From Patescibacteria group bacterium (lineage in GTDB: Bacteria > Patescibacteriota > Patescibacteriia > UBA9934), in contig JAGORL010000002.1 of assembly GCA_018062825.1 (NCBI GenBank), forward strand, positions 129,629 to 193,628: a DNA stretch of 64,000 nt, written 5' to 3'. The notes under the pieces are model-generated. The model saw only the letters and a program-made list of their open reading frames with translations, did not search any database and had not been told where the DNA came from. Positions within the stretch are counted from its first letter, which is position 1; the number at the start of each line of letters is the position of its first letter. The translations under genes were made by a program, and so were the position numbers. This document shows positions 490 to 55,087 of this stretch, piece by piece.

Positions 490-614
490 ATTGTTTTTAA
501 CGAAGTTAAAAAACATCCCGAACAACATGAGGGATCCTGTGCCATAAACACAGGACATCATTACCACCGCCCCTTTCACTCAGTCATCCGCAACCCCGCA
601 CCCAGGAGCACGCC

Positions 615-1361
615 ATGTTCTTCACCTCCCTCTCCAGCGACCACGAAGGTAACGAGCTGCTCACCGTGTACGTCGGCAACGGCCTCAACCTCGCCGTCCT
701 CATGACGGCAATCGAGAACCCCGATCTCAGCGATGAGATCGACGAAGCGATCGAGGAGGGGCGCAACGTCGTCACGACGATGATCCTCATCGAAGACGAA
801 CCCCACGAGCAGCCGTTCGACGGCGTTGGCGGGTGGTCTACCGAGGACATCCCCCTGGAAAATGTCTTCATCTCTGAGGACCTCCCGCGCGTCTGGACCT
901 TGGAGGACGACGGGATGACGTGCTACATCTTCATCCCGGTCATCGCGCTCGATGAAGCGGATCAGGAGGAAGAGCTGCCGCCCCCGAGCGAGCCCTTCTT
1001 CCGACAGAATGACGAGCGTGAAGACGCGGTCTACAACGAGGAATGGGCACCGGTCTCGACCAACGATCTGATGACGGACGACGAGACCGACAGCATCGAC
1101 CCCGCCGATCTGGAGTGGTGGAGCGAGGAGGAGCTCAACGCCATCCTCATTCCCGTCGAAGAAGACGAAGAGCCCAACGAGCTCGCGGATCTGGACGTGG
1201 ATCTCACCAAGAACGACGCGCCCGACCCCAAGAAGGGCCAGCGTATCAGCGATCGCGGCTGGAAGAGCAAGCGTCAGTGGCAGAAGGGACGGGACAACCG
1301 TCTCTCCCGCCACGAGGCCCGAGCTGGCCTCAACTCCATCGTCCGGCGCCAGAGCGCCTGA
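615..1361 (+). CDS. Highly acidic (D/E-rich) hypothetical protein, GC-rich.
   Basis: 248-aa ORF with plausible composition. The antisense 264-aa ORF is L/V/G/R-rich junk. A + strand promoter lies upstream and a + strand terminator downstream. Confidence 0.6.
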   Translation: MFFTSLSSDHEGNELLTVYVGNGLNLAVLMTAIENPDLSDEIDEAIEEGRNVVTTMILIEDEPHEQPFDGVGGWSTEDIPLENVFISEDLPRVWTLEDDGMTCYIFIPVIALDEADQEEELPPPSEPFFRQNDEREDAVYNEEWAPVSTNDLMTDDETDSIDPADLEWWSEEELNAILIPVEEDEEPNELADLDVDLTKNDAPDPKKGQRISDRGWKSKRQWQKGRDNRLSRHEARAGLNSIVRRQSA

Positions 1362-1371
1362 CGACAACACG

Positions 1372-29203: not shown

Positions 29204-31219
29204 TTACCACGATGCTATCGATCCTCCGGCTAAAAGAGATGCGAGACTCGTTGGTAATAAAACCGCGTCGCCGCTAGCAAAAACCGCGGAGAGTCCACTA
29301 GGAACGCTGAACAAAATGTCAGGAATTTCGTCCTGAGAAACATCAACCACGTGCACCGTAGCACCCACCGGAACAGTCACCGCAAAATTAAATGCTCCAA
29401 TACGATTGTAAGCGAAAACCGTACCACTTGAAGACGAAACAACAATTTCATCACGACTATCGTCATCAAAATCACGCGCTTGCAGGCCAGTAATTACCGC
29501 GCCACTAGGCACTCCAGAAAACGATCCTCGATCGGTGCCATCAATGTCATACGTAGCGACTCTGCTGCCACCAAGCTCTGCAACCGTAATCTCCCAATCC
29601 CAATCGTCATCAACGTCCGCGATCGCAACCATAAGCGGAGCTCCCACCGTAAAGCCCTGCGGAGTAAAGCGAGCAAGCTCAATACCCGTATCCGAATACA
29701 CAATGACATCCTCCCCACCAACCGTTGCGGTCACAATGTCGTAATACGTGTCGCCAATAATATCGCCAACCGCAATACGAACGCCATGCGTATCAATGGC
29801 TTCACCAGCGTAAAACGCTCGAGCCAACTGACCACCCGTTGTAAACACGCGAACAAGCGGCGGCGCACCAACGCCAACACCAGTAACAATTTCCGGAACC
29901 TCACTACCGGCAACGTCACCAAGATCAACGTAAATGCCTACATTCAGATCCTGAGCGTAAGGAGCGAAACTTGCTAACTCCATGCCAACGCCATCATACA
30001 AACGAACAAGCGGCACTTCACCAGCTGCCGATCCAAAGACAAAGTAATCAAGACCAAGACGCGCCGGTGGCCGAACAACTATCGCCTCATCAGGTAGCGC
30101 CTCAGCTGTCGAGAAAGCAGCCCCCACACTAAGCGCACGCGCCACGTTTAATCGACCAACACCAATCGCATTCATGGCGCTTAAATGTGAACTCACCGGA
30201 TCAACTGACAGTTTCAAAATAATGCGCACCTCTTCCGGAGTTAAATCTGGGTAACGAGCCAACAGCAAGGCTGCACCACCTGCAACAAGCGGTGCGGACG
30301 CTGAAGTACCGGTCCATGTCACATCCCCGCCCTCAGGCCGATCCTCACCATAAACCGATAAACCGAGCATATCTTCCCCGGGAGCGCTCAAATCAGCACA
30401 AGTAGCACCATAGTTTGTAAAATCCGTCTCGCCATCAAAGTAATCCGTCGCAGCTACGCCGATCACCCAATCCGCGGTGTCGTTCCCCAAACAAGCCGGG
30501 TACACCGGGTAATCATCAACGTTCAGGGCCTCGTTACCCAAAGATGCGACTATCACCACGCCAGCGTCATATGCTCTCCTGATCGCCGTACGCAAGCGCG
30601 AGGAAATATCTGAACCCGCAATACTTAAATTAATCACCCGCGCCCCTTGTGCTACGGCATAATCAACTGCTTCCGCCGCATCCTCCTCCGTGCCGTTACC
30701 ATTCGCATCCAAAATACGCAGCGGCAACAGTGCCGTCTGATGAGCTACTCCAATATAACCAGTGGCATTATTAGCTTCAGCTGCAATTAGCCCTGCCACA
30801 AACGTCCCGTGTGAGAGCTCGTCATCTTGAGAAAAATCCGGGCGGACATCGGCATCCTCATCCACAAAATCCCAACCGGATACGTCATCAATAAAACCAT
30901 TATTATCGTCATCAATATCATTGCCAGCAACCTCAAGAGGATTAATCCAAATATTAGCGGCAAGATCCGGATGATCCGTTGAGATCCCTGAATCAAGGAC
31001 CGCAACAATCACCTGAGCACTTCCCGCCGTAGTCTCCCAAGCAAGTTCAGAAGAAATACGCTCCAGGTACCACTGATCCAAATAACCTGGATCATCAAAG
31101 GTAGCGGCCTGCACAAGCGATGGCGTAAGAACTGCAAACAAACTCAACCAAACCAAGAAGCCGCGTACAAAAGACATATATACGCAGTATACGGCCTTAC
31201 CTAAATAAAAAAAGAGCAC
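29204..31219 (-). CDS. Secreted subtilisin-like serine protease (peptidase S8) with C-terminal FG-GAP/VCBS-like repeats.
   Basis: Catalytic D (VLDSGI), H (HGTFVAG) and S (GTSASAP). The ORF as drawn begins with GTG. An ATG 14 codons downstream (MSFVRGFLVW...) gives a clean signal peptide. Confidence 0.85.
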   Translation of the reverse strand: MLFFYLGKAVYCVYMSFVRGFLVWLSLFAVLTPSLVQAATFDDPGYLDQWYLERISSELAWETTAGSAQVIVAVLDSGISTDHPDLAANIWINPLEVAGNDIDDDNNGFIDDVSGWDFVDEDADVRPDFSQDDELSHGTFVAGLIAAEANNATGYIGVAHQTALLPLRILDANGNGTEEDAAEAVDYAVAQGARVINLSIAGSDISSRLRTAIRRAYDAGVVIVASLGNEALNVDDYPVYPACLGNDTADWVIGVAATDYFDGETDFTNYGATCADLSAPGEDMLGLSVYGEDRPEGGDVTWTGTSASAPLVAGGAALLLARYPDLTPEEVRIILKLSVDPVSSHLSAMNAIGVGRLNVARALSVGAAFSTAEALPDEAIVVRPPARLGLDYFVFGSAAGEVPLVRLYDGVGMELASFAPYAQDLNVGIYVDLGDVAGSEVPEIVTGVGVGAPPLVRVFTTGGQLARAFYAGEAIDTHGVRIAVGDIIGDTYYDIVTATVGGEDVIVYSDTGIELARFTPQGFTVGAPLMVAIADVDDDWDWEITVAELGGSRVATYDIDGTDRGSFSGVPSGAVITGLQARDFDDDSRDEIVVSSSSGTVFAYNRIGAFNFAVTVPVGATVHVVDVSQDEIPDILFSVPSGLSAVFASGDAVLLPTSLASLLAGGSIASW

Positions 31220-38285: not shown

Positions 38286-38570
38286 ATGTCTACCACCTCA
38301 CAAATCAGGCTCTCAGTCTCAGAAGCCGCTAAGATCTTCGGTGTAAGCACTCGAACCGTACGTCGCGCCATTGCCGACGGCGAAGTTAGCTACATCGTCG
38401 TTCAAGGCAGATACAAGATCGCCTTCCCTTCCCTACTTGCCTGGTCACAACGCACCACAACCGTCAAAAACAAGCTGGCAAAAGAAGGCATTGGCCAATA
38501 CGTAGCCCAGTGGTCCATTAAGAACACACTCTACTCGCCAAAGGCGCCTGAAAAAGGACTTGAAGCCTAA
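38286..38570 (+). CDS. Small HTH DNA-binding protein (excisionase/MerR-like HTH_17).
   Basis: 'LSVSEAAKIFGVSTRTVRRAIADGEVSY'. Confidence 0.6.
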   Translation: MSTTSQIRLSVSEAAKIFGVSTRTVRRAIADGEVSYIVVQGRYKIAFPSLLAWSQRTTTVKNKLAKEGIGQYVAQWSIKNTLYSPKAPEKGLEA

Positions 38571-39699
38571 AGTGACTATGCGCGCCTATAAAGACAAGAT
38601 CTTAGCTCAATTCCTTGACGAACTCCCTGTCGTCTCACTTAAGACACTCCTCAAGCCACAAACAAATGAATTACGAGCACTACGAAACGCCCTTGAATCG
38701 GAAACAGGCGCTCTACCTCTATTGTCGTTCCCGAGGGTCAATTCATTTCAGGTAGCAGACGCAAAACAGGCAGCACACGCCATACACCAAAAAATAGCGA
38801 GCTCCCCCGCTCACCCGATCCTAGTACGCTTCTACCTTGAAAAACTTTCAGAGTACGAACTAAAAATCGATCTCATTGAAGCCGTACAAAAGGATGACTC
38901 GCTTGCCATTGGTCGCTTAACACAAAAAATCCACGGCCCAGTCACTATCACAACTAACAAATACGAAGAGTTGATCACGAAACGTCTACAAGACCACAAG
39001 GCGATCACACCGAAAAAGAAATCTAAAACCGTGAACGCTGAAACCTTTGCAAAACTAGCGCGACAAAAGCTAGACGCGATCGGCGGCCAAGACTGGGCAA
39101 TCAAGGTAATGAAACGAGATCGCATCCAGATCGCCTACAAAAGAGCCGGCTCCGCAACGCTACGCATTCCAGCTGACCTTGAACTAACGAAAAAGCGTGC
39201 AGAGCAAATTCTGCGTCATGAAATTGACGGACATGCAAAACGCACAATAAACGGCTTACAAAGCGGCTATAAAATCCTCGGTCGAGGACTAGCGTATTAC
39301 AAACGAACCGAAGAAGGCGTGGCAACGCACATCCAGAAAACGGTAAATAGCGGGCTCTGGGACGGATACGCCGCAAGCCTCCGTAAAGAACAAGATCTGC
39401 AAGAGGCCTACAATGCACTCGTAGAGAAAAAAATGCGGTACTATCAAAGCCTCAAAAAAACTGACGCTAAAGATCTCGCAAAAGCTAGCGCCTGGCGACT
39501 AATCAAGCGAACGCTCCGCGGAGTGCACGATCCTTCTCAGGCTGGAGCCGCCTTCTTCCGCACGCATATTTACTTTGAAGGTAAAGAAGAGGTGCGCAAA
39601 GCAATTAAAAAAAATCCACTCATCATGAACGATCTCATGATCGGCAACATCGGCCTACAGCACGTACACGAAGTCAAAGAACTCTTAGCGACAAAATAA
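38560..39699 (+). CDS. DUF1704-like protein with an HExxxH motif and a QEGLA-like motif.
   Basis: 'RHEIDGHAKR' (HExxxH) and 'EEGVATH' resemble the QEGLA-motif family. Confidence 0.45.
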   Translation: MKPKVTMRAYKDKILAQFLDELPVVSLKTLLKPQTNELRALRNALESETGALPLLSFPRVNSFQVADAKQAAHAIHQKIASSPAHPILVRFYLEKLSEYELKIDLIEAVQKDDSLAIGRLTQKIHGPVTITTNKYEELITKRLQDHKAITPKKKSKTVNAETFAKLARQKLDAIGGQDWAIKVMKRDRIQIAYKRAGSATLRIPADLELTKKRAEQILRHEIDGHAKRTINGLQSGYKILGRGLAYYKRTEEGVATHIQKTVNSGLWDGYAASLRKEQDLQEAYNALVEKKMRYYQSLKKTDAKDLAKASAWRLIKRTLRGVHDPSQAGAAFFRTHIYFEGKEEVRKAIKKNPLIMNDLMIGNIGLQHVHEVKELLATK

Positions 39700-42356: not shown

Positions 42357-45218
<2,862 letters not shown>

Positions 45219-45287
45219 GAGAACCTCGGGCTACAGGGTGAATAGGAACGTGATTTTTCACACGCTAATTGTGAACGAACTAGGCTA

Positions 45288-45316
45288 AATATAGCAAAAA
45301 AATGGCATTTTGTCAA
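45288..45316 (-). promoter_or_regulatory. Extended -10 promoter TTGACA-N17-TGcTATATT.
   Basis: Minus strand: gaTTGACAaaatgccatttttttGcTATATTtagcc, about 63 nt upstream of the ATG at 45218. Confidence 0.6.
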
Positions 45317-45317
45317 T

Positions 45318-45360
45318 CAAAAAAAGAACTCCCGTACCGCCTTTTCAGGTGGTACGGGAG
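45318..45360 (-). terminator. Rho-independent terminator: 10-bp stem CUCCCGUACC/GGUACGGGAG followed by a U-tract.
   Basis: Minus strand: ctcccgtacc-acctgaaaaggc-ggtacgggag-ttcttttttt. Confidence 0.7.
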
Positions 45361-45366
45361 CACGCG

Positions 45367-46071
45367 TCACGCGCAACGCTTGCGGCGCAACAAGTAACCG
45401 ACGAAGGGCAGCAGGATTACCGGGAAGCCGCCACTCGAGTCGCACCGACAACCCGGATCACCCAGGAAGGGCGGCGGACTCGTGGAGCACCGGCAGCCGG
45501 TTGCGGGAAAGCCACCGGTGTCACCAGAGCACTCGCCCTCGATCTCATCCACACAACCGTCGCAGTTGTTGTCACGACCGTCCTCCGGAATCTCGGGCGC
45601 ACCAGGGTAGGTGGCCGCGTCCCAGGGATCGCAGTCGTCGAGCGCCTCGTAGACGTCGAGCGCCACGAAGCCATCGCCGTCGCAGTCGTTGTCGAGCACG
45701 TCAGCGTCGCCCTCATCCCAGAGGCCGTCGCAGTCGTTGTCGATCCCGTCACACACCTCCACGGCGCCCGGATTGGTCTCCGAGTCGCCGTCGTTGCAGT
45801 CGTGTACGGCGGGATTGAAATTGCCGTAAACGTAGGCCGTGGCCATAGGGGCGTTCGGATCATCCGGATCCTCGTGCCACTCCGGCCCCTCCTCCAGGCA
45901 CCCAAACGGGTCCGCGTAGCGGGGCCACTTCTTCGTGGCCTCGTGACAGTTCACGAAGCCGTCGCCATCGACGTCATCTTCGGTCTTGTTACACCCCCCA
46001 AGGAGGGTGAAGAGCAGGAACAGGAACATGGTAAAGAGCGTCTTCACGGCGCCTCCAGGGTTGGGGTTCAA
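45367..46071 (-). CDS. Acidic lipoprotein with three MopE-like repeats and a C-terminal Cys / hydrophobic / Arg-rich tail (PEP-CTERM/MYXO-CTERM-like).
   Basis: Lipobox 'LLGGC'. 'PGAVEVCDGIDNDCDG' repeats. C-terminus 'GCRCDSSGGFPVILLPFVGYLLRRKRCA*'. Confidence 0.7.
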   Translation of the reverse strand: MNPNPGGAVKTLFTMFLFLLFTLLGGCNKTEDDVDGDGFVNCHEATKKWPRYADPFGCLEEGPEWHEDPDDPNAPMATAYVYGNFNPAVHDCNDGDSETNPGAVEVCDGIDNDCDGLWDEGDADVLDNDCDGDGFVALDVYEALDDCDPWDAATYPGAPEIPEDGRDNNCDGCVDEIEGECSGDTGGFPATGCRCSTSPPPFLGDPGCRCDSSGGFPVILLPFVGYLLRRKRCA

Positions 46072-46088
46072 GAAATCGTGAAGAGTAA

Positions 46089-46117
46089 AATATAGCAGAA
46101 ATTAGCGAAAATGTAAA
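46089..46117 (-). promoter_or_regulatory. Extended -10 promoter TTTACA-N17-TGcTATATT.
   Basis: Minus strand: cTTTACAttttcgctaatttcTGcTATATTttactc. Shares 'ttttcgctaatttctgctat' with the promoter at 244-272. Confidence 0.6.
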
Positions 46118-46149
46118 GAGTCTAGGGTGTGGAGTATTCAGCCATTTAT

Positions 46150-46272
46150 CTACTCCCTACTTACAGCCCCAACGTAGTCCGGCTCCGCCGGACGAAGTGG
46201 GCCCTACTCCCTACTTACTACTCACTACTCTCTATCCCCTATTCCCTATTCTCTATACCCTATCCCCTAAAA
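46150..46272. repeat. Dispersed structured repeat, copy D (core 46164-46203), with an extended array of CTAYTCCCTA-type direct repeats.
   Basis: cagccccaacgtagtccggctccgccggacgaagtgggcc flanked by ctactccctac...ctatcccctattccctattctctataccctatcccct. Confidence 0.75.
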
Positions 46273-46321
46273 GAAAAAGCGCGCCCCTCACTCACCCCCG
46301 AAGGAATGAATGAGGAGCGCT
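46269..46321 (-). terminator. Intrinsic terminator with a UUCG tetraloop. The stem pairs only with G-U wobbles on the minus transcript.
   Basis: Minus strand: agcgcuccucauucauucc-UUCG-ggggugagugaggggcgcgcu-uuuucuuuu. Confidence 0.75.
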
Positions 46322-46346
46322 ACGTCACCTCACGAGCTCGACCGAC

Positions 46347-47705
46347 CTACAGGTCGATCTTGCAGATGAAGTGGTACTCGTCCGGGTGCTTGTTGCAGAC
46401 GCGAGCCGAGGGAGTGCTGTCCTCGGTCAGCGAGATCGTGTACGTATCGCCATCGATCTCGAGGCGATCCACGTGCTCCACCACGCTTCCGCCGCTGTTC
46501 TCGAGGCCCCAGGTCTCGTCGTCGCCGTCGAAGTCGCCGTCACCGTTCTCGTCGCACCAGAGCTGGAGACGGTACTCTTCGCCGTCGTCGAACTCGAGCT
46601 CGTCTTCGTGGGTGTTGGCGTCGTCGGGGTTGCCGACCTTCATCGGCCACTCGTCGCCCTCCTCGTAGTCGTCGTCGTGGACGAACATCGCCTGCCACTC
46701 CTCGCCGCTGCACCACGAGGACTGCTTGACCACGCTGACCTCGACCTCGTCCCCGTTGCTGGACTCGTCGCAGTCCTCGCAGTCGGAGTCGTCGTCGTCC
46801 TCGTCGCCGTCGCAGTCGTCGTCGACGCCGTTCTCGATCTCGTCCTCGTCCGGGTTCACGTCCGGGTCGTCGTCGTCGCAGTCCTCGTCGTTGCGGATCC
46901 AGCGCGAGGACGGCTGCTCGCCGATCTCGTACTCGTCGCAACGATCTTCGTCGCCGAAGCCGTCGCCGTCCGAGTCGTAGCAGTACTCGACCTCGTCGTC
47001 GCTCTGGCACTCGTCGTGCTCGTCCTCGTCGCCGTCGTCGCAGTCGTCGTCGTTGTCGACGTACCCGTTCGGCTCCTCGCCGTCCTGGTACATCGCGCAC
47101 TGGTCGGGGTCGCCGTACCCGTCGCCGTCGTCGTCGTCGCACCACTCGTCCTCGTCGTTGTCGTTGTCGTCGTCCGAGTCCTCGTCGAGGACTCGACAGA
47201 CGAGGTCTTCGCTGCGCGGGAGCTTCACGCACTCGCCGTAGTCGGGCGAGGCGCTCTCGTCGTCGCGGAGGTCCGAGACGTCGTACTCCTCACCGTCGAT
47301 CATGAGCTCCTCGATGTTGACGGTGATCCGCGAACTCGAGGAGCTGTTCTCCACGAGCCAGGTGTCGTCGTCCCCATCGCATCCGCCGTTCACGTAGATC
47401 AGGTCGCCGGCGTAGATGCCGATGACCCCTTCGAGCGTGTCGTCGTCCCCCTCTTCGAGCGGGTCGTCGTCCCAGCGGTCGGAGTTGTTGCGGCCGTTGT
47501 CGGTGATGTTGCGGACCCACAGCGACCAGTCGTCGTTCTCGCACCAGTCGCCGTCACGGGTGACGCTGATCTCAGCGTCCTCCCCGAGGCGCCAGAGCGC
47601 GTCGCTGTTGTCGGTGTTGTCGCTGCCGTCTCCCACGAGCTGGGTGGACGGGCTGCAGGCGCTCGTGGCGATGAGCGCCAGGAGGCCGAACGAGAAACGG
47701 GTCAT
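46347..47705 (-). CDS. Acidic D/C-rich lipoprotein: N-domain, MopE-like repeats, C-domain, ending in 'CKIDL'. Paralog of 48059..49315.
   Basis: Lipobox 'IATSAC'. 'DDDCDDGDEDEHDEC...DCDGDEDDDD'. C-terminus 'HFICKIDL*'. Confidence 0.7.
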   Translation of the reverse strand: MTRFSFGLLALIATSACSPSTQLVGDGSDNTDNSDALWRLGEDAEISVTRDGDWCENDDWSLWVRNITDNGRNNSDRWDDDPLEEGDDDTLEGVIGIYAGDLIYVNGGCDGDDDTWLVENSSSSSRITVNIEELMIDGEEYDVSDLRDDESASPDYGECVKLPRSEDLVCRVLDEDSDDDNDNDEDEWCDDDDGDGYGDPDQCAMYQDGEEPNGYVDNDDDCDDGDEDEHDECQSDDEVEYCYDSDGDGFGDEDRCDEYEIGEQPSSRWIRNDEDCDDDDPDVNPDEDEIENGVDDDCDGDEDDDDSDCEDCDESSNGDEVEVSVVKQSSWCSGEEWQAMFVHDDDYEEGDEWPMKVGNPDDANTHEDELEFDDGEEYRLQLWCDENGDGDFDGDDETWGLENSGGSVVEHVDRLEIDGDTYTISLTEDSTPSARVCNKHPDEYHFICKIDL

Positions 47706-47800
47706 GAGACCCTCCGTGCGGAAATGGCCCTAATGGCCGGTTGATTGGGAATGTTCCCCGTCGAAATCTGCAGGCTGATCCCGCCGAAATCGAACGGGCA

Positions 47801-47830
47801 ATACTACCAAAGAAACAGGAGCGATGTCAA
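47801..47830 (-). promoter_or_regulatory. Promoter TTGACA-N18-TAGTAT. An alternative TGGCAA-N16-TATAAT lies at 47851-47880.
   Basis: Minus strand: cTTGACAtcgctcctgtttctttggTAGTATtgcc, about 100 nt upstream of the ATG at 47705. Confidence 0.45.
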
Positions 47831-47969
47831 GCTTTTTGCTTAGGGTTAGCGATATTATAAGGAACAAAAAAGCGATTGCCAGATTGGGCGTCACAACCCC
47901 TCCAGTCAATCACTTGCACTAGTAATACGTTTGAAACATCAAAAAGTTTCACTAACCCACTAAAATATC

Positions 47970-48027
47970 CTTTAAAAGTAGAAGAGCGCCCCTCACTCAC
48001 TCCCGAAGGAATGAATGAAGAGCGCTC
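47970..48027 (-). terminator. Intrinsic terminator of the same family (UUCG loop, cctcactcactccc arm).
   Basis: gagcgcccctcactcactcccgaaggaatgaatgaagagcgctc. Its loop and arms are nearly identical to the 46269-46321 terminator. Confidence 0.65.
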
Positions 48028-48058
48028 ACGTGCCGTCTCGCTAGCTCAGCCAGTCGAC

Positions 48059-49315
48059 CTAGAGGTCGATCTTGCAGAGCCAGTCGAATCGGTCTTCGTC
48101 CTCGGGCAAGGTGCACTCGCCGGCGGAAGGGGTGTCGTCCCGATCGTCGCGGCGGATGTACTCCTGCCCGTCGATCTCGATCGACTCGAAGTTGTCCGCA
48201 CCGGACATGACGCCCCACGTGGTGGAGTCGTCCCACGGATCGTCGTTCTCGTTCGAGTCGCAGAAGGCCTGCACGGAGAAGATCTCCCCGTCCTCGACCT
48301 CGAGCTCGCCGGTCACGTCGTCGGTGCTGACCATGTCCATGGCCAGCTCCTCGTCCGCGTACCGATCGTCCTCGCCGTTCGCCTCGCGGTGAAAGCGGAC
48401 CTGCCACTGGTCGGAGTTGCACCAGGTTGCGTTCATCGCGACCATGACGTCGACGATGGTGCCACCGTTCGTGCAGTCCTCGCAGTTGCTGTCGTCCGTG
48501 TCGACGTCGCCGTCGCAGTCGTTGTCGACGTTGTCGTCGACTTCGTCTGCGTCGGGGTTGATCTCGTCGTCGGAGTCGTCGCAGTCGTCGTCGTTCGACA
48601 CGTAGTCGGAGGGTTCGTCACCCTCTTCGTACATGTCGCACTCGTCGCTGTCGCCGAAGCCGTCGCCGTCGTCGTCGAGGCAGAACTCGCTGGTCTCGCC
48701 GTCGGTCTCGTCCTCGTCCTGCTCGTCCTCGTCGGGAGTGCCGACGCGGCAGATCAGGTTGTGGTCGGAGTCGTCGTGGATCCGGCAGGTGCCGGCCGCG
48801 GGACTCGTGGTCGCCGCGGAGGAGACGTCGATGACGTACTCCACGTTGTCCACTTCGAGCCGGGAGATGTGGGTGATGTCCCCGTTCTCCACGAGCCAGA
48901 ACTGCTCGTCCATGACGCCGGTGCCGTTCAGGAGGAACTTGTCCCCCTCTTCGAGGTTGACGTCGCCGACCAGGATCCGGCTGTCACCGATCTCCACGAT
49001 GTTCGTCGGGAAGACGAAACCATCGAGATCGGTGGTGACCCAGAACTCCCAGTCGCCGTCGAGATCGTTGTACACGTCGGAGCTGAGCGTGACCTCGAAG
49101 GTCATCTCGCTGCCGGTCGTGTCGTCGGTCTCGTCGTCGGTGTCGTCCTCGTCCGAGTCGCTGCCGATCGTGTCGACGTTGTCGTCGTTCGGCACGACCC
49201 CGTTGCCGGGGCTCATGCTCTCGTCGTCGGTGTCGCCACCGACGCGCTCCACAGAGGGGACGCCGCAAGCGGCGAGAGACACGAAGGACAGGGTGAACAG
49301 GATGCTGCGGAACAT
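48059..49315 (-). CDS. Acidic D/C-rich lipoprotein ending in 'CKIDL'. Paralog of 46347..47705.
   Basis: Lipobox 'LAAC'. Shared N- and C-domain motifs (WLVEN, IEIDG, TWG). C-terminus 'FDWLCKIDL*'. Confidence 0.7.
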   Translation of the reverse strand: MFRSILFTLSFVSLAACGVPSVERVGGDTDDESMSPGNGVVPNDDNVDTIGSDSDEDDTDDETDDTTGSEMTFEVTLSSDVYNDLDGDWEFWVTTDLDGFVFPTNIVEIGDSRILVGDVNLEEGDKFLLNGTGVMDEQFWLVENGDITHISRLEVDNVEYVIDVSSAATTSPAAGTCRIHDDSDHNLICRVGTPDEDEQDEDETDGETSEFCLDDDGDGFGDSDECDMYEEGDEPSDYVSNDDDCDDSDDEINPDADEVDDNVDNDCDGDVDTDDSNCEDCTNGGTIVDVMVAMNATWCNSDQWQVRFHREANGEDDRYADEELAMDMVSTDDVTGELEVEDGEIFSVQAFCDSNENDDPWDDSTTWGVMSGADNFESIEIDGQEYIRRDDRDDTPSAGECTLPEDEDRFDWLCKIDL

Positions 49316-49414
49316 GGTGCCTCCAAGGCAGGGTGGCCGGAATGGCCGAAGTCACAGTAACTATGTGGAAAGGTTCGCGTCGAAACCGATGTTGCCATCA
49401 ATCTCGAACAGTCT

Positions 49415-49443
49415 ATAGTAACAGAAATTTAGGAAAATGTCAA
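49415..49443 (-). promoter_or_regulatory. Extended -10 promoter TTGACA-N17-TGtTACTAT.
   Basis: Minus strand: ccTTGACAttttcctaaatttcTGtTACTATagact. Confidence 0.6.
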
Positions 49444-49474
49444 GGGTGAACGTATGTATTTAGGCTAATATAAG

Positions 49475-49520
49475 CCATAAAAGAAGAATTCCCCCACGCA
49501 GCCGAAGCTGGTGGGGGAAC
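49475..49520 (-). terminator. Rho-independent terminator with a UUCG tetraloop.
   Basis: Minus strand: guucccccac-cagc-UUCG-gcug-c-gugggggaa-uucuucuuuuau. Confidence 0.7.
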
Positions 49521-49541
49521 GAGCGTCGACCGAAGTCGATG

Positions 49542-50183
49542 CTAGAACGTGTGGTCGCAGGTCGTCGGACCTGGCTCGAGGACTTCGCCGTCGGAGAAGA
49601 GGAAACAGGCGGAACCGCGAGCGAACTGGTCCTGCCAGTAGTACTGGCTGGAGTTCGGCACCTCCGCCCACTCGAGCCGCGACGTGTCGTCGAGGTCGTT
49701 GAGGGCGCGGAAGTTCACGCGGTGTGGGCCTTCGAGGGTGAGGTTGGCGCAACGCCAGGTCTCCCCCGCGTGCTCCCACACATACGCCTCGACGGCCGAG
49801 GTGACCCAGTCGCCGCAAGCGGAGTTGGGATCCTCGGAGTCGGGGACGCCGTCGTTGTCGCAGTCCTCGTCCTCGTCGACCCACGGCTCTCCGGACAGGC
49901 CGTAGCCCACCAGGTATCCGACCTCGGAGTACCCGAACAGATCGTTCCGCCCGCAGAAGCTGGCGACCTGACCGTTCTCGTTCGTGAACGCCAGGTGGTA
50001 CTGCTTCCCGTCGGGCTCGCCGTTCTCGTCGAAGTCGGACGACTCGTCGCCGGCGTCGCGGTCGGGACGGTCGCTGCTCTCGCAGGCGACCTCCTCCCCG
50101 GCGCTGTTGGTGCACACCGGCTGTTGGCAGCCGATGAGGAACAGGGACGCGAGGATGGTGTTCAGGAACAAGCTGCCATTCAT
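49542..50183 (-). CDS. Acidic secreted lipoprotein (about 213 aa) with Asp/Cys-rich segments.
   Basis: The start was trimmed to MNGSLFLNTILASLFLIGC (lipobox). The 37-residue N-terminal extension in the ORF track lacks signal-peptide character. Confidence 0.6.
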   Translation of the reverse strand: MNGSLFLNTILASLFLIGCQQPVCTNSAGEEVACESSDRPDRDAGDESSDFDENGEPDGKQYHLAFTNENGQVASFCGRNDLFGYSEVGYLVGYGLSGEPWVDEDEDCDNDGVPDSEDPNSACGDWVTSAVEAYVWEHAGETWRCANLTLEGPHRVNFRALNDLDDTSRLEWAEVPNSSQYYWQDQFARGSACFLFSDGEVLEPGPTTCDHTF

Positions 50184-53842: not shown

Positions 53843-55087
53843 TCAGACGACGACCTTGCGCTCGGCGTCTGCAAGAAGCGCGCGAGCGTCAGCAAGGATC
53901 TGCTCCTCTTCGCTCAGAGCATGCGCGCAGCGCTCGTACTCCACACAGGTCTGCTCGTAGAGCGCCTTGAGTCGATCCCGCTCCGCTGCAGCCGACTTCT
54001 CGGCGCCGGAAGCGCGCTTCACTGCGCTCGTTGCGTCCTTCACCTGCCGGCGCAAGCCAGCAACGCTCTGCAGAAGCTCCGTCCGCTCCCGCAACCCCCG
54101 AAGCTCCTCCTCGAGATCGTCATCCGACAGCCGAAGCGCTGTCGGTACGACAAGCGGCTCGACGGTGCAACCAGGGGGTTCACGAGTCATGATGGCAGGA
54201 TCCTCCGAGACGAAGTCGTCGACAGACGGAAAGACAGGAACGGGAGACTCTTCAAGCACGATTGCCACCCGCTCGACCACGACCTTGCTCAGGTGTGCGA
54301 TGGCGGCATCGTACTGCTGCGGATCGGGATAGATCCGACTCAGATCCACTTCTCCCTGCACCGCATTCAGTGCCGGCAGCTCAGCAAAGCGCTTCTGCAT
54401 GCGCTCTGGCCGCAAGACGTACACGTTCCCGCGCTTATGGCGCTGGTACACGCGAATCGCCTTCAGCTTGGTGAAGTACTCGAGCGCCTCCCGCTCCGTC
54501 ACCTCACGGAACTCCGGAAGTCCGCACAGCGTTTGCACGAAGTCAGCCGTGAAGACTTCATCTGTCGGGTACGTAGCCTCTACCCGCACCACGACCGCGA
54601 TCAGGTTGCGCAGGCTGGCGTACAGCCTCATGCACACATTGACCACGTCAGTCTGCGAATCTGGTGGTTGGTTCGGCGCCGTTTGCGCCGCCACCGGCTT
54701 CGCGCCCTCATCACCAGCCTCGTCCACGGTGATGTACGAGCCATACTCCTTGATCATCTCGCGCCAGACCTGTAGGCAGGCTGGGCTGAAAGATGCAGTC
54801 TGCACATCCGGGTGTTCCGGGTTCAGGATGAACTCAGGCTCACCCATGTTCGGCCGATCGATCTTGACGACCATGGCCGGTCGGCCAAGTGCCACGTTCG
54901 GTCGTAGCGACACTTGGCGCAGAATATTCGCTGCCGACCGCGTCTCGCGGTTCACGGAGCGCAGACTCTGAAACCGCTTCACTGCGTCTTCCAGACCACC
55001 GATGTAGTCGGAAAGGCCCATCGGCCCGTTTCGCAGCAAGCTCAGCAGAGCCTCCTTGAGGTCCTGTATTGACTCGGACGTTCGCAA
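53843..55087 (-). CDS. GC-rich hypothetical protein with a C-terminal coiled coil. Probable TTG start.
   Basis: 414-aa ORF. An in-frame TGA lies immediately upstream of TTG with the SD-like sequence agaggtg. A promoter lies upstream. Confidence 0.45.
   Translation of the reverse strand: MRTSESIQDLKEALLSLLRNGPMGLSDYIGGLEDAVKRFQSLRSVNRETRSAANILRQVSLRPNVALGRPAMVVKIDRPNMGEPEFILNPEHPDVQTASFSPACLQVWREMIKEYGSYITVDEAGDEGAKPVAAQTAPNQPPDSQTDVVNVCMRLYASLRNLIAVVVRVEATYPTDEVFTADFVQTLCGLPEFREVTEREALEYFTKLKAIRVYQRHKRGNVYVLRPERMQKRFAELPALNAVQGEVDLSRIYPDPQQYDAAIAHLSKVVVERVAIVLEESPVPVFPSVDDFVSEDPAIMTREPPGCTVEPLVVPTALRLSDDDLEEELRGLRERTELLQSVAGLRRQVKDATSAVKRASGAEKSAAAERDRLKALYEQTCVEYERCAHALSEEEQILADARALLADAERKVVV

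Follow-up and report, generated by a model that had tools for sequence, protein, structure and literature searches.

Genes A and B lie side by side on the minus strand of a 64,000-nucleotide stretch of Patescibacteria DNA (contig JAGORL010000002.1, 197,750 bp, assembly GCA_018062825.1), hereafter the window, and each encodes a protein that ends in the pentapeptide CKIDL, a tail that a sequence-only reading of this DNA had proposed to be a C-terminal recognition tag. Gene A (46347..47705) encodes 452 residues (MBP9828110.1), of which 35% are Asp or Glu and 19 are Cys; gene B (48059..49315) encodes 418 residues (MBP9828111.1) with 31% Asp plus Glu and 13 Cys, and both products are annotated as 'hypothetical protein'. 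Translation of the two open reading frames (ORFs) confirmed their positions, their strand and their ends, ...HFICKIDL in A and ...DWLCKIDL in B. The tail of A is encoded at 46350..46364 (TGC AAG ATC GAC CTG) and that of B at 48062..48076 (TGC AAG ATC GAC CTC), each followed directly by a TAG stop codon (46347..46349 and 48059..48061, respectively). The two proteins match each other by BLASTP with E=1e-23 and 31% identity, or 40% identity across the columns aligned by MAFFT, and on these alignments they are paralogs, arranged as tandem duplicates. The architecture that had been described for the pair, a lipobox followed by two beta domains with an acidic, Cys-rich core between them, was recovered in full, and the motifs quoted with it (W-C, TWG, (I/L)EIDG and WLVEN) are all present.

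An N-terminal signal peptide and lipobox could be read from the translation of each protein (A, MTRFSFGLLALIATSAC; B, MFRSILFTLSFVSLAAC). In A these occupy 47655..47705 (MTRFSFGLLALIATSA, then the lipobox Cys, Cys17), a pattern common to the A ortholog P0002 and other members of the family described below, and in B they occupy 49265..49315 (MFRSILFTLSFVSLAA, then Cys17). Judged by reading the sequences against the pattern [LVI][ASTVI][GAS]C, B has a classic lipobox (LAAC) of the type expected of bacterial lipoproteins processed by Lgt and LspA, and that of A (TSAC) is atypical at position -3; P0002 has LNAC, and TSSC, LMGC, LVAC and TGGC occur in further family members. The ORF scans of the window, which covers 64 kb of the genome, turned up neither Lgt nor LspA. 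Taken together, these features suggest that the very acidic proteins A and B are exported and lipid-anchored, with a probable location at the cell surface.

Each protein contains two copies of an all-beta domain of ~130 residues, one on either side of the Asp/Cys-rich core. The N-terminal copy of A (residues 38-174; 47184..47594) ends ...DLVCRVLD and runs into an acidic linker, and its C-terminal copy spans residues 315-452 (46350..46763); the N-terminal copy of B (residues 66-193; 48737..49120), which has lost the first Cys pair, ends ...NLICRVGT, and the C-terminal copy spans residues 281-418 (48062..48475). The N- and C-domains of A match one another with E=3e-10 and, when the window is searched with tblastn, the four copies find one another and nothing else, in agreement with the internal duplication that had been suspected. 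Given that the closest relative of the A N-copy is the B N-copy, and that the C-copies likewise pair with each other, the internal duplication is older than the duplication that separated A from B.

In an alignment of 12 copies, only P118, C123 and C134 (numbering of the A C-domain) are invariant, and two of these three columns are the Cys of CKIDL (C134) and the Cys 11 residues upstream of it. A second pair, C18 and C70, is present in eight of the 12 copies and missing as a pair from three (the B N-copy, P0005 and P0007), the twelfth copy, P0010, being a fragment whose missing N-terminal part includes the C18 position; two Cys that form a disulfide would be expected to come and go together in this way. 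The model of the A C-domain obtained from AlphaFold2 (AF2) with the 12-sequence alignment is all-beta, with 11 strands, a predicted local distance difference test score (pLDDT) of 87 and a predicted template modelling score of 0.83, and its last eight residues have a mean pLDDT of 96. Single-sequence prediction on full-length A gave a pLDDT of 39 and was unusable. In the model, the last two antiparallel strands are formed by residues 122-125 and 132-135, which puts C123 opposite C134, and we infer two disulfides in the domain, C18-C70 and C123-C134.

According to this model, Cys134 would pair with Cys123 and so close the terminal beta-hairpin, the Lys/Arg and Ile/Val that follow Cys134 would prolong the last strand, and variation would be tolerated at no more than the last one or two positions. 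The N-copies of both proteins carry the homologous motif, two hydrophobic residues followed by C-[KR]-[IV] (LVCRV in A, LICRV in B), in the middle of the chain, where it is continued by a linker (LVCRVLDEDSDD and LICRVGTPDEDE), and the motif is therefore a feature of the domain that has no need of a free C-terminus. CKIDL is thus read here, with a probability of roughly 0.7, as the end of the last strand and the disulfide Cys of the beta domain, plus two or three trailing residues, and its identity in A and B would arise because both proteins share a domain whose last strand is structurally constrained, and not from a portable tag. A six-frame translation of the window contains no ORFs ending in C[KR][IVL][DE]L-stop other than A and B. 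A and B have eight identical stretches of at least four residues in common; besides CKIDL these are WLVEN, DDDGDG, NDDDCDD, DCDGD, CEDC, EIDG and TPSA, so that the pentapeptide is conserved yet not unique.

The wider family is small. When 1.84 billion representative proteins were searched exhaustively by hmmsearch with a profile of the four copies, 11 matches were obtained at E<=0.001, eight of which are true family members: B itself, P0002, P0003, P0004, P0005, P0006, P0007 and P0010, all singletons at 90% clustering. P0002 is the ortholog of A (68.5% identity), P0003 has 164 residues and consists of one domain preceded by a signal anchor, P0004 to P0007 are lipoproteins of 376-536 residues, and P0010 is a fragment. 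In every member the beta domain lies at the extreme C-terminus, it is present in single copy in all members other than those of the A/B type, and all full-length distant members combine a lipobox with the C-terminal domain. Word-indexed protein searches with domain alignments found nothing, or the fragment P0010 only. A scan of 185,579 GTDB species genomes with a four-sequence alignment and pattern gave no relative, and the same pattern scan of 241 million JGI metagenome records gave the contig of P0002 only. The domain has no match among Pfam or NCBIfam families; a sequence search of the PDB with the domain profile gave a best match of E=1.3, not significant, to an archaeal pilin, and a fold search of BFVD with the beta-domain model found no significant relative. 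Foldseek against the PDB listed CBM25, CBM20, C2 and Fn3 sandwiches, none significant (best E=0.13, TM score 0.25-0.40, 8-14% identity). These sandwiches resemble the A/B domain in being all-beta modules of ~130 residues at the end of a surface protein, but at these scores, and given the two conserved disulfides of the A/B domain, it cannot be assigned to any of them. By these searches, the beta domain is a previously undescribed and very rare family, and the finding defines a new disulfide-stapled beta domain carried by lipoproteins of a conserved envelope-biogenesis locus.

Comparison of the tails across this family separates a close subfamily from the more distant members. In the former (A, B, P0002 and P0003), [YF][HND][FLW][IL]C[KN]IDL is one of the two best-conserved stretches, so that the claim of conservation beyond chance holds at this range; P0002 retains CKIDL and P0003 has CNIDL. 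Elsewhere the chain ends in CRVDM (P0007), CRRPL (P0004), CNVP (P0005), CQVE (P0006, the positional ortholog in the locus L007) or CQL (P0010), and the tails generalise to C-x-hydrophobic plus zero to two variable residues. The sequence-only reading had held that homologs without the CKIDL terminus would count against a tag, and this is the case for all of the distant relatives, though not for P0002 and P0003; since the tail varies among orthologs and homologs, it does not behave as a portable tag. The same reading had suggested a search for CKIDL-ending proteins in other genomes and metagenomes, which yielded P0002 and, in the pattern scans, no further relative carrying the tail, and a check for a specific protease or transporter gene that accompanies it; in the loci compared, none was seen to do so consistently.

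Several points weigh against the tail being simply the end of the last strand. The final three residues, IDL, are invariant in the close subfamily at 30-56% identity, although they lie outside the strand assigned by DSSP, and in every single-domain homolog the domain ends two to four residues from the C-terminus, so that the terminus itself could matter. Moreover, the structure used in the argument is a prediction, and with only about eight members the conservation statistics are weak.

Given these points, it is possible that C[KN]IDL-COOH is itself recognised as a signal, perhaps as a class-II-like hydrophobic-x-hydrophobic-COOH ligand by the PDZ domain of an envelope protease of the HtrA/Ctp type, or by some other sorting or attachment factor. 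The position of the domain at the very C-terminus of all single-domain members and the strong conservation of the tail in the close subfamily are both consistent with this, as is the presence of Leu or Met at +4 from the Cys in six of eight C-terminal copies, where the CRVDM of P0007 is a conservative version of CKIDL. The endings I-D-L-COOH and V-D-M-COOH fit the PDZ class II motifs recognised by HtrA/DegS/Tsp-type proteins, and in L004 and L007, loci of distant relatives, as well as on the contig of P0007, the family member has a Trypsin_2-PDZ protease gene 1-4 kb upstream. However, this is unlikely: CQVE, CNVP and CQL are not hydrophobic-x-hydrophobic, two of them end in Glu or Pro and their lengths differ, and an HtrA-PDZ gene adjoins P0006 (CQVE) as well as P0007 (CRVDM). 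No HtrA/PDZ, sortase, exosortase or rhombosortase was found among the window ORFs of at least 150 residues scanned with Pfam, the internal N-copies bear the motif with no free terminus, and the tail is carried by A and B alone in the window, the genome and metagenome scans described above having added no relative with it beyond P0002. Comparison with known C-terminal signals leads in the same direction. LPXTG, PEP-CTERM, MYXO-CTERM, GlyGly-CTERM and the C-terminal domain of the type IX secretion system (T9SS) share with CKIDL a conserved extreme C-terminus on secreted, repeat-rich surface proteins, and MYXO-CTERM proteins often carry MopE repeats. A and B nevertheless lack the combination of signature motif, hydrophobic helix and basic cluster, no cognate enzyme is encoded in the window, and their tail is variable and lies within a folded domain. 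The ends ...DEYHFICKIDL and ...DRFDWLCKIDL contain neither the hydrophobic helix nor the Arg/Lys cluster of PEP-CTERM, GlyGly-CTERM and MYXO-CTERM sequences; the LPXTG-like motif, transmembrane segment and basic tail of a sortase substrate are absent from both proteins; and there is no Pfam or NCBIfam match to the T9SS C-terminal domain or Por_Secre_tail, the organism being a member of the Patescibacteria and not of the Bacteroidota. Searches of NCBIfam with the whole proteins, the tails and the domain gave no match, to a sorting signal or otherwise, even at E<=10. The claim of a detachable tag is therefore not supported, given the mid-chain motif of the N-copies, the structural Cys, the varied tails of the homologs and the lack of any sorting-signal model. 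A more speculative and distinctly improbable version is that, in this lineage, the free terminus ...C-[KRN]-[IV]-D-[LM]-COOH of a last strand that is otherwise structural is read as a quality-control or anchoring signal by an envelope factor, either an HtrA-type PDZ protease or an attachment factor of the Wzy_C/GT4 locus, and that the lineages with CQVE, CNVP and CQL have lost or replaced it; if true, this would be a free-terminus signal for a new class of surface proteins of the candidate phyla radiation (CPR).

The identity of the tails could also be a by-product at the level of DNA. Gene conversion between the paralogs may have homogenised the gene ends together with their terminators, or the two elements may be maintained as a single 3' RNA/DNA module, and in either case the last codons would simply follow. 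The 3' untranslated regions (3'UTR) of A and B are 86% identical over ~85 nucleotides after the stop codon, compared with 59% for the coding DNA, and 21 of 22 nucleotides are identical across the stop codon itself. The 3'UTR and terminator regions (46260..46346 and 47965..48058 on the minus strand of the window, L002 1655..1745 and L003 10496..10575) are homologous among A, B, P0002 and P0003, with local-alignment z-scores of 8-34 against shuffled sequences, and are better conserved than the coding DNA of the four genes; none matches an Rfam family. They include predicted intrinsic terminators on the minus strand, after A at 46281..46320 (18-bp stem, TTCG loop and T-run; -39 kcal/mol, z=-3.9) and, homologous to it, after B at 47984..48027 (20-bp stem, TTCG loop; -44 kcal/mol, z=-6.0). 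The flanks of the hairpin are conserved (ACGTGAGCGCT ... GGCGCTCTTTTGCTTTT), and since P0002 shows a compensatory change from U-A to C-G and P0003 a wholly different upper stem between the same flanks, the hairpin itself appears to be under selection. That this accounts for the CKIDL tail is, however, quite unlikely. The conservation is a mosaic, in which the tail and the hairpin are separated by ~30 diverged nucleotides, and does not form a uniform conversion tract; furthermore, the tails of P0002 and P0003 are found on contigs from other samples, where conversion within one genome offers no explanation, and Cys-x-[IV] is conserved across the family at the protein level. Gene conversion is ranked as a minor contributor because the conservation is mosaic and extends to these other contigs. 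The last five codons of A and B differ only at the third position of Leu, which raised the possibility of selection on the tail codons as DNA; this was rejected, since identical codons are predicted by the amino-acid identity together with the extreme codon bias of the two genes (TGC 95%, AAG 100%, ATC 99%, GAC 93%). Finally, it could be argued that the A and B ORFs are artefacts of GC-rich sequence and not genes, or that their resemblance reflects low-complexity acidic composition only, given that long antisense ORFs run over both on the plus strand (46371..47744 and 47876..49360) and that acidic residues make up about a third of each protein. This is barely tenable: the profile retrieves specific homologs, with E-values down to 1e-21 and 8e-15 among the 1.84 billion proteins despite the composition correction of HMMER, the Cys, Trp and Pro columns are conserved, the all-beta AF2 model is confident, the synteny is conserved, and the signal peptides, promoter-like sites and terminators all lie on the minus strand, with the antisense ORFs an expected by-product of a GC content at third codon positions (GC3) above 0.9. 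The last strand of the beta domain is thus retained as the favoured explanation of the CKIDL tail, and a tempting 'C-terminal tag' is better read in this way, which saves the effort of looking in vain for sorting machinery.

The core that separates the two beta domains has a recognisable ancestry of its own. In A it occupies 46764..47183 and consists of two degenerate units resembling the MopE/PF11617 repeat (DGDG[YF]GD ... DCDD ... DDDCDGD); in B sequence comparison placed one such unit at 48476..48736, both on the minus strand. MopE of Methylococcus capsulatus is a PF11617 protein, and PF11617 repeats are very numerous in the lipoproteins of Myxococcota; MopE itself binds copper, at a different site. 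No match to PF11617 was obtained for A or B at E<=1 (gathering score 27 bits), so that neither can be counted as a member of the Pfam family. The cores are nevertheless homologous to repeats that do carry the annotation: by BLASTP, residues 237-304 of A match residues 89-155 of P0005 with 44% identity (E=2e-12), residues 206-272 of B match the same segment with E=4e-13, and the A core also matches the MopE proteins of L004 and L007. Bona fide PF11617 proteins include P0004, P0005 and P0007 among the homologs and two neighbouring lipoproteins in the window, w953 and w234. Like A and B, proteins of this kind are secreted or lipid-anchored and contain tandem Asp/Cys-rich units (DGDG[YF]G ... DCDD ... 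C.DG.DNDCDG; the repeat consensus is quoted in PMC3278476), whereas the A/B cores are degenerate and fall below the threshold, and a flanking beta domain is generally absent from PF11617 proteins.

From the N- to the C-terminus, each protein thus consists of a lipobox, an acidic linker, a first beta domain, a degenerate MopE-type Asp/Cys core of one or two repeats, and a second beta domain. By analogy with PF11617 and thrombospondin type-3-like motifs, the acidic core is probably a spacer or stalk made rigid by bound cations, and the beta domains are probably binding modules that it holds off the membrane, so that A and B may contribute to the architecture of the cell surface or mediate attachment, whether to a glycan or to the surface of a host. 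This proposal is held with less confidence than the reading of the tail, given that cation binding by the core is argued from analogy and that, with no fold relative found (best Foldseek E=0.13), a binding function is a guess. Patescibacteria are mostly uncultured and host-dependent, and their surface proteins, prime candidates for host attachment, are mostly annotated as 'hypothetical', an annotation that A and B carry as well. A search of the literature for MopE-type lipoproteins in Patescibacteria found nothing relevant.

Both genes belong to a row of five lipoprotein genes on the minus strand. On one side of A lie w234 (45367..46071; 234 residues, two PF11617 repeats, 70.9 bits) and w953 (42357..45218; 953 residues), the latter with 12 PF11617 repeats (309.6 bits) and a different beta-rich C-terminal region; beyond B lies a gene at 49542..50183 that encodes 213 residues from MNGSLFLNTILASLFLIGC and has no family match. 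Matches to the sigma-70 promoter consensus, on consensus grounds alone, are found on the minus strand upstream of A (47801..47830, TTGACA-18-TAGTAT) and of B (49415..49443); w234 and w953 are each preceded by a promoter-like site as well, and a long-stem terminator with a TTCG loop follows A, B and w953. On this arrangement A and B each appear to form their own transcription unit. Between the A terminator and the next promoter-like site there is an irregular ATAGGG-like run (GGGGATAGGGTATAGAGAATAGGGAATAGGGGATAGAG; 46230..46270, minus strand), which is absent from the B spacer. The w234 protein ends ...GCRCSTSPPPFLGDPGCRCDSSGGFPVILLPFVGYLLRRKRCA, where its last ~30 codons combine a GCRC motif in two copies with a hydrophobic helix and a group of basic residues (RRKRCA end) and, unlike CKIDL, this tail has the classical anatomy of a C-terminal anchor or sorting signal in the style of PEP-CTERM or MYXO-CTERM, with no NCBIfam match.

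The surroundings of the pair are conserved in part. The order in the window is B, A, two MopE-type genes, two GT4 glycosyltransferase genes, a MATCAP-like gene on the opposite strand, a sigma factor, a DUF5667 protein and a 1365-residue protein; in L007 it is P0006, a MopE protein, Wzy_C, two GT4 genes, a helix-turn-helix (HTH) gene, a sigma factor, a 382-residue protein and a 1400-residue protein. Identities between the two loci are 40% and 58% for the first and second GT4 proteins, 49% for the sigma factor, 38% for the DUF5667 protein and 62% for the 1365-residue protein, and w953 shares 47% identity with the MopE protein located after P0006; P0006 occupies the position of A and B, which makes it their positional ortholog. 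Comparable loci around P0004, P0005 and P0007 contain Wzy_C, GT4, Wzz-like and HtrA-PDZ genes. The conserved GT4 genes and extracytoplasmic function (ECF) sigma/DUF5667 pair, together with the Wzy_C, Wzz-like and HtrA-PDZ genes of the relatives, suggest a role in cell-envelope or surface-glycan biology. In L004, L006 and L007 a Wzy_C gene separates the MopE gene from the GT4 genes; in the window none lies at this position. The MATCAP (microtubule-associated tyrosine carboxypeptidase, PF08014) homolog (38560..39699, plus strand; E=6e-21) lies within the syntenic locus, where L007 has the small HTH gene; as a carboxypeptidase-like protein it was considered as a processor of the CKIDL tail and rejected, since it lacks a signal peptide and has no syntenic counterpart in L007.

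Most of the window from 1 to 42238 is devoted to envelope and glycan biosynthesis, with six GT4-type and three GT2-type glycosyltransferase genes and RmlA/B/D-like genes, and further encodes two DUF4012 proteins, MreB, a CDP-alcohol phosphatidyltransferase, an S8 subtilase (29204..31219) and the ECF sigma factor with its DUF5667 protein. The window also encodes an EF-Ts of 197 residues. Its RF1 is 54% identical to that of the best named Patescibacteria metagenome-assembled genome (MAG), 55% to that of one 'uncultured Gammaproteobacteria' MAG and 51-52% to those of Magasanikbacteria MAGs. These values, together with the EF-Ts and the DUF5667 and DUF4012 proteins, fit a member of the Patescibacteria that has no close sequenced relative.

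The codon usage of the lipoprotein genes is a more puzzling feature than the tail. The five lipoprotein coding sequences (42357..50183) have a GC3 of 0.80-0.94 (GAC 83%, ATC 97%, TGC 76%), compared with 0.43-0.52 (GAC 43%, ATC 44%, TGC 17%) in the flanking genes, among them rpsB, tsf, gyrB and the GT4 genes, and the spacers between the lipoprotein genes have a genome-typical GC content of 0.45-0.50. The same contrast, 0.84-0.97 against 0.47-0.69, is found in every syntenic relative sampled (L007 8553..12937, L004 4846..11562 and L003 10001..10495). Since it is limited to the coding sequences and is kept in relatives, it is a property of the gene family at the level of codons and reflects neither a recent foreign island nor a regional mutation bias. 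The antisense ORFs over A and B (457 and 494 residues) and a third at 42480..45245 on the plus strand (921 residues) are by-products of GC3 above 0.8-0.9 and not genes. GC3 is also raised, to 0.73, in a minus-strand ORF at 53843..55087 whose 414-residue product has no Pfam match, no signal peptide and a coiled-coil-like C-terminus, and to 0.66 at 576..1370 (minus strand), an ORF with no Pfam match that overlaps one on the opposite strand and may not be a gene.

The single-domain homolog P0003 comes from L003 (JADJDD010000003.1, 272,888 bp, assembly GCA_016702885.1), a contig labelled Anaerolineales / Ca. Villigracilis vicinus. Transfer across phyla was considered and rejected, since all named best matches of the adjacent LigA fragment are to Patescibacteria (top match 63%), and the contig is probably a Patescibacteria sequence mis-binned into a Chloroflexota MAG. 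It was likewise considered whether P0003 is a piece of a longer protein read through recoded UGA codons; this was rejected on account of an in-frame TAG upstream under translation tables 11, 25 and 4, and on the reading of its frame P0003 is a real protein made up of one domain and a signal anchor. The ligA, pilM and prepilin peptidase genes of L003 are apparently split, pointing to frameshifts introduced by the assembly and away from recoding. Immediately upstream of P0003 are type IV pilus genes (PilM and an A24 prepilin peptidase) along with three small ORFs that have no annotation (L003 6188..9958), and an archaeal pilin is also the sole PDB sequence match of the domain profile, at the non-significant value given above.

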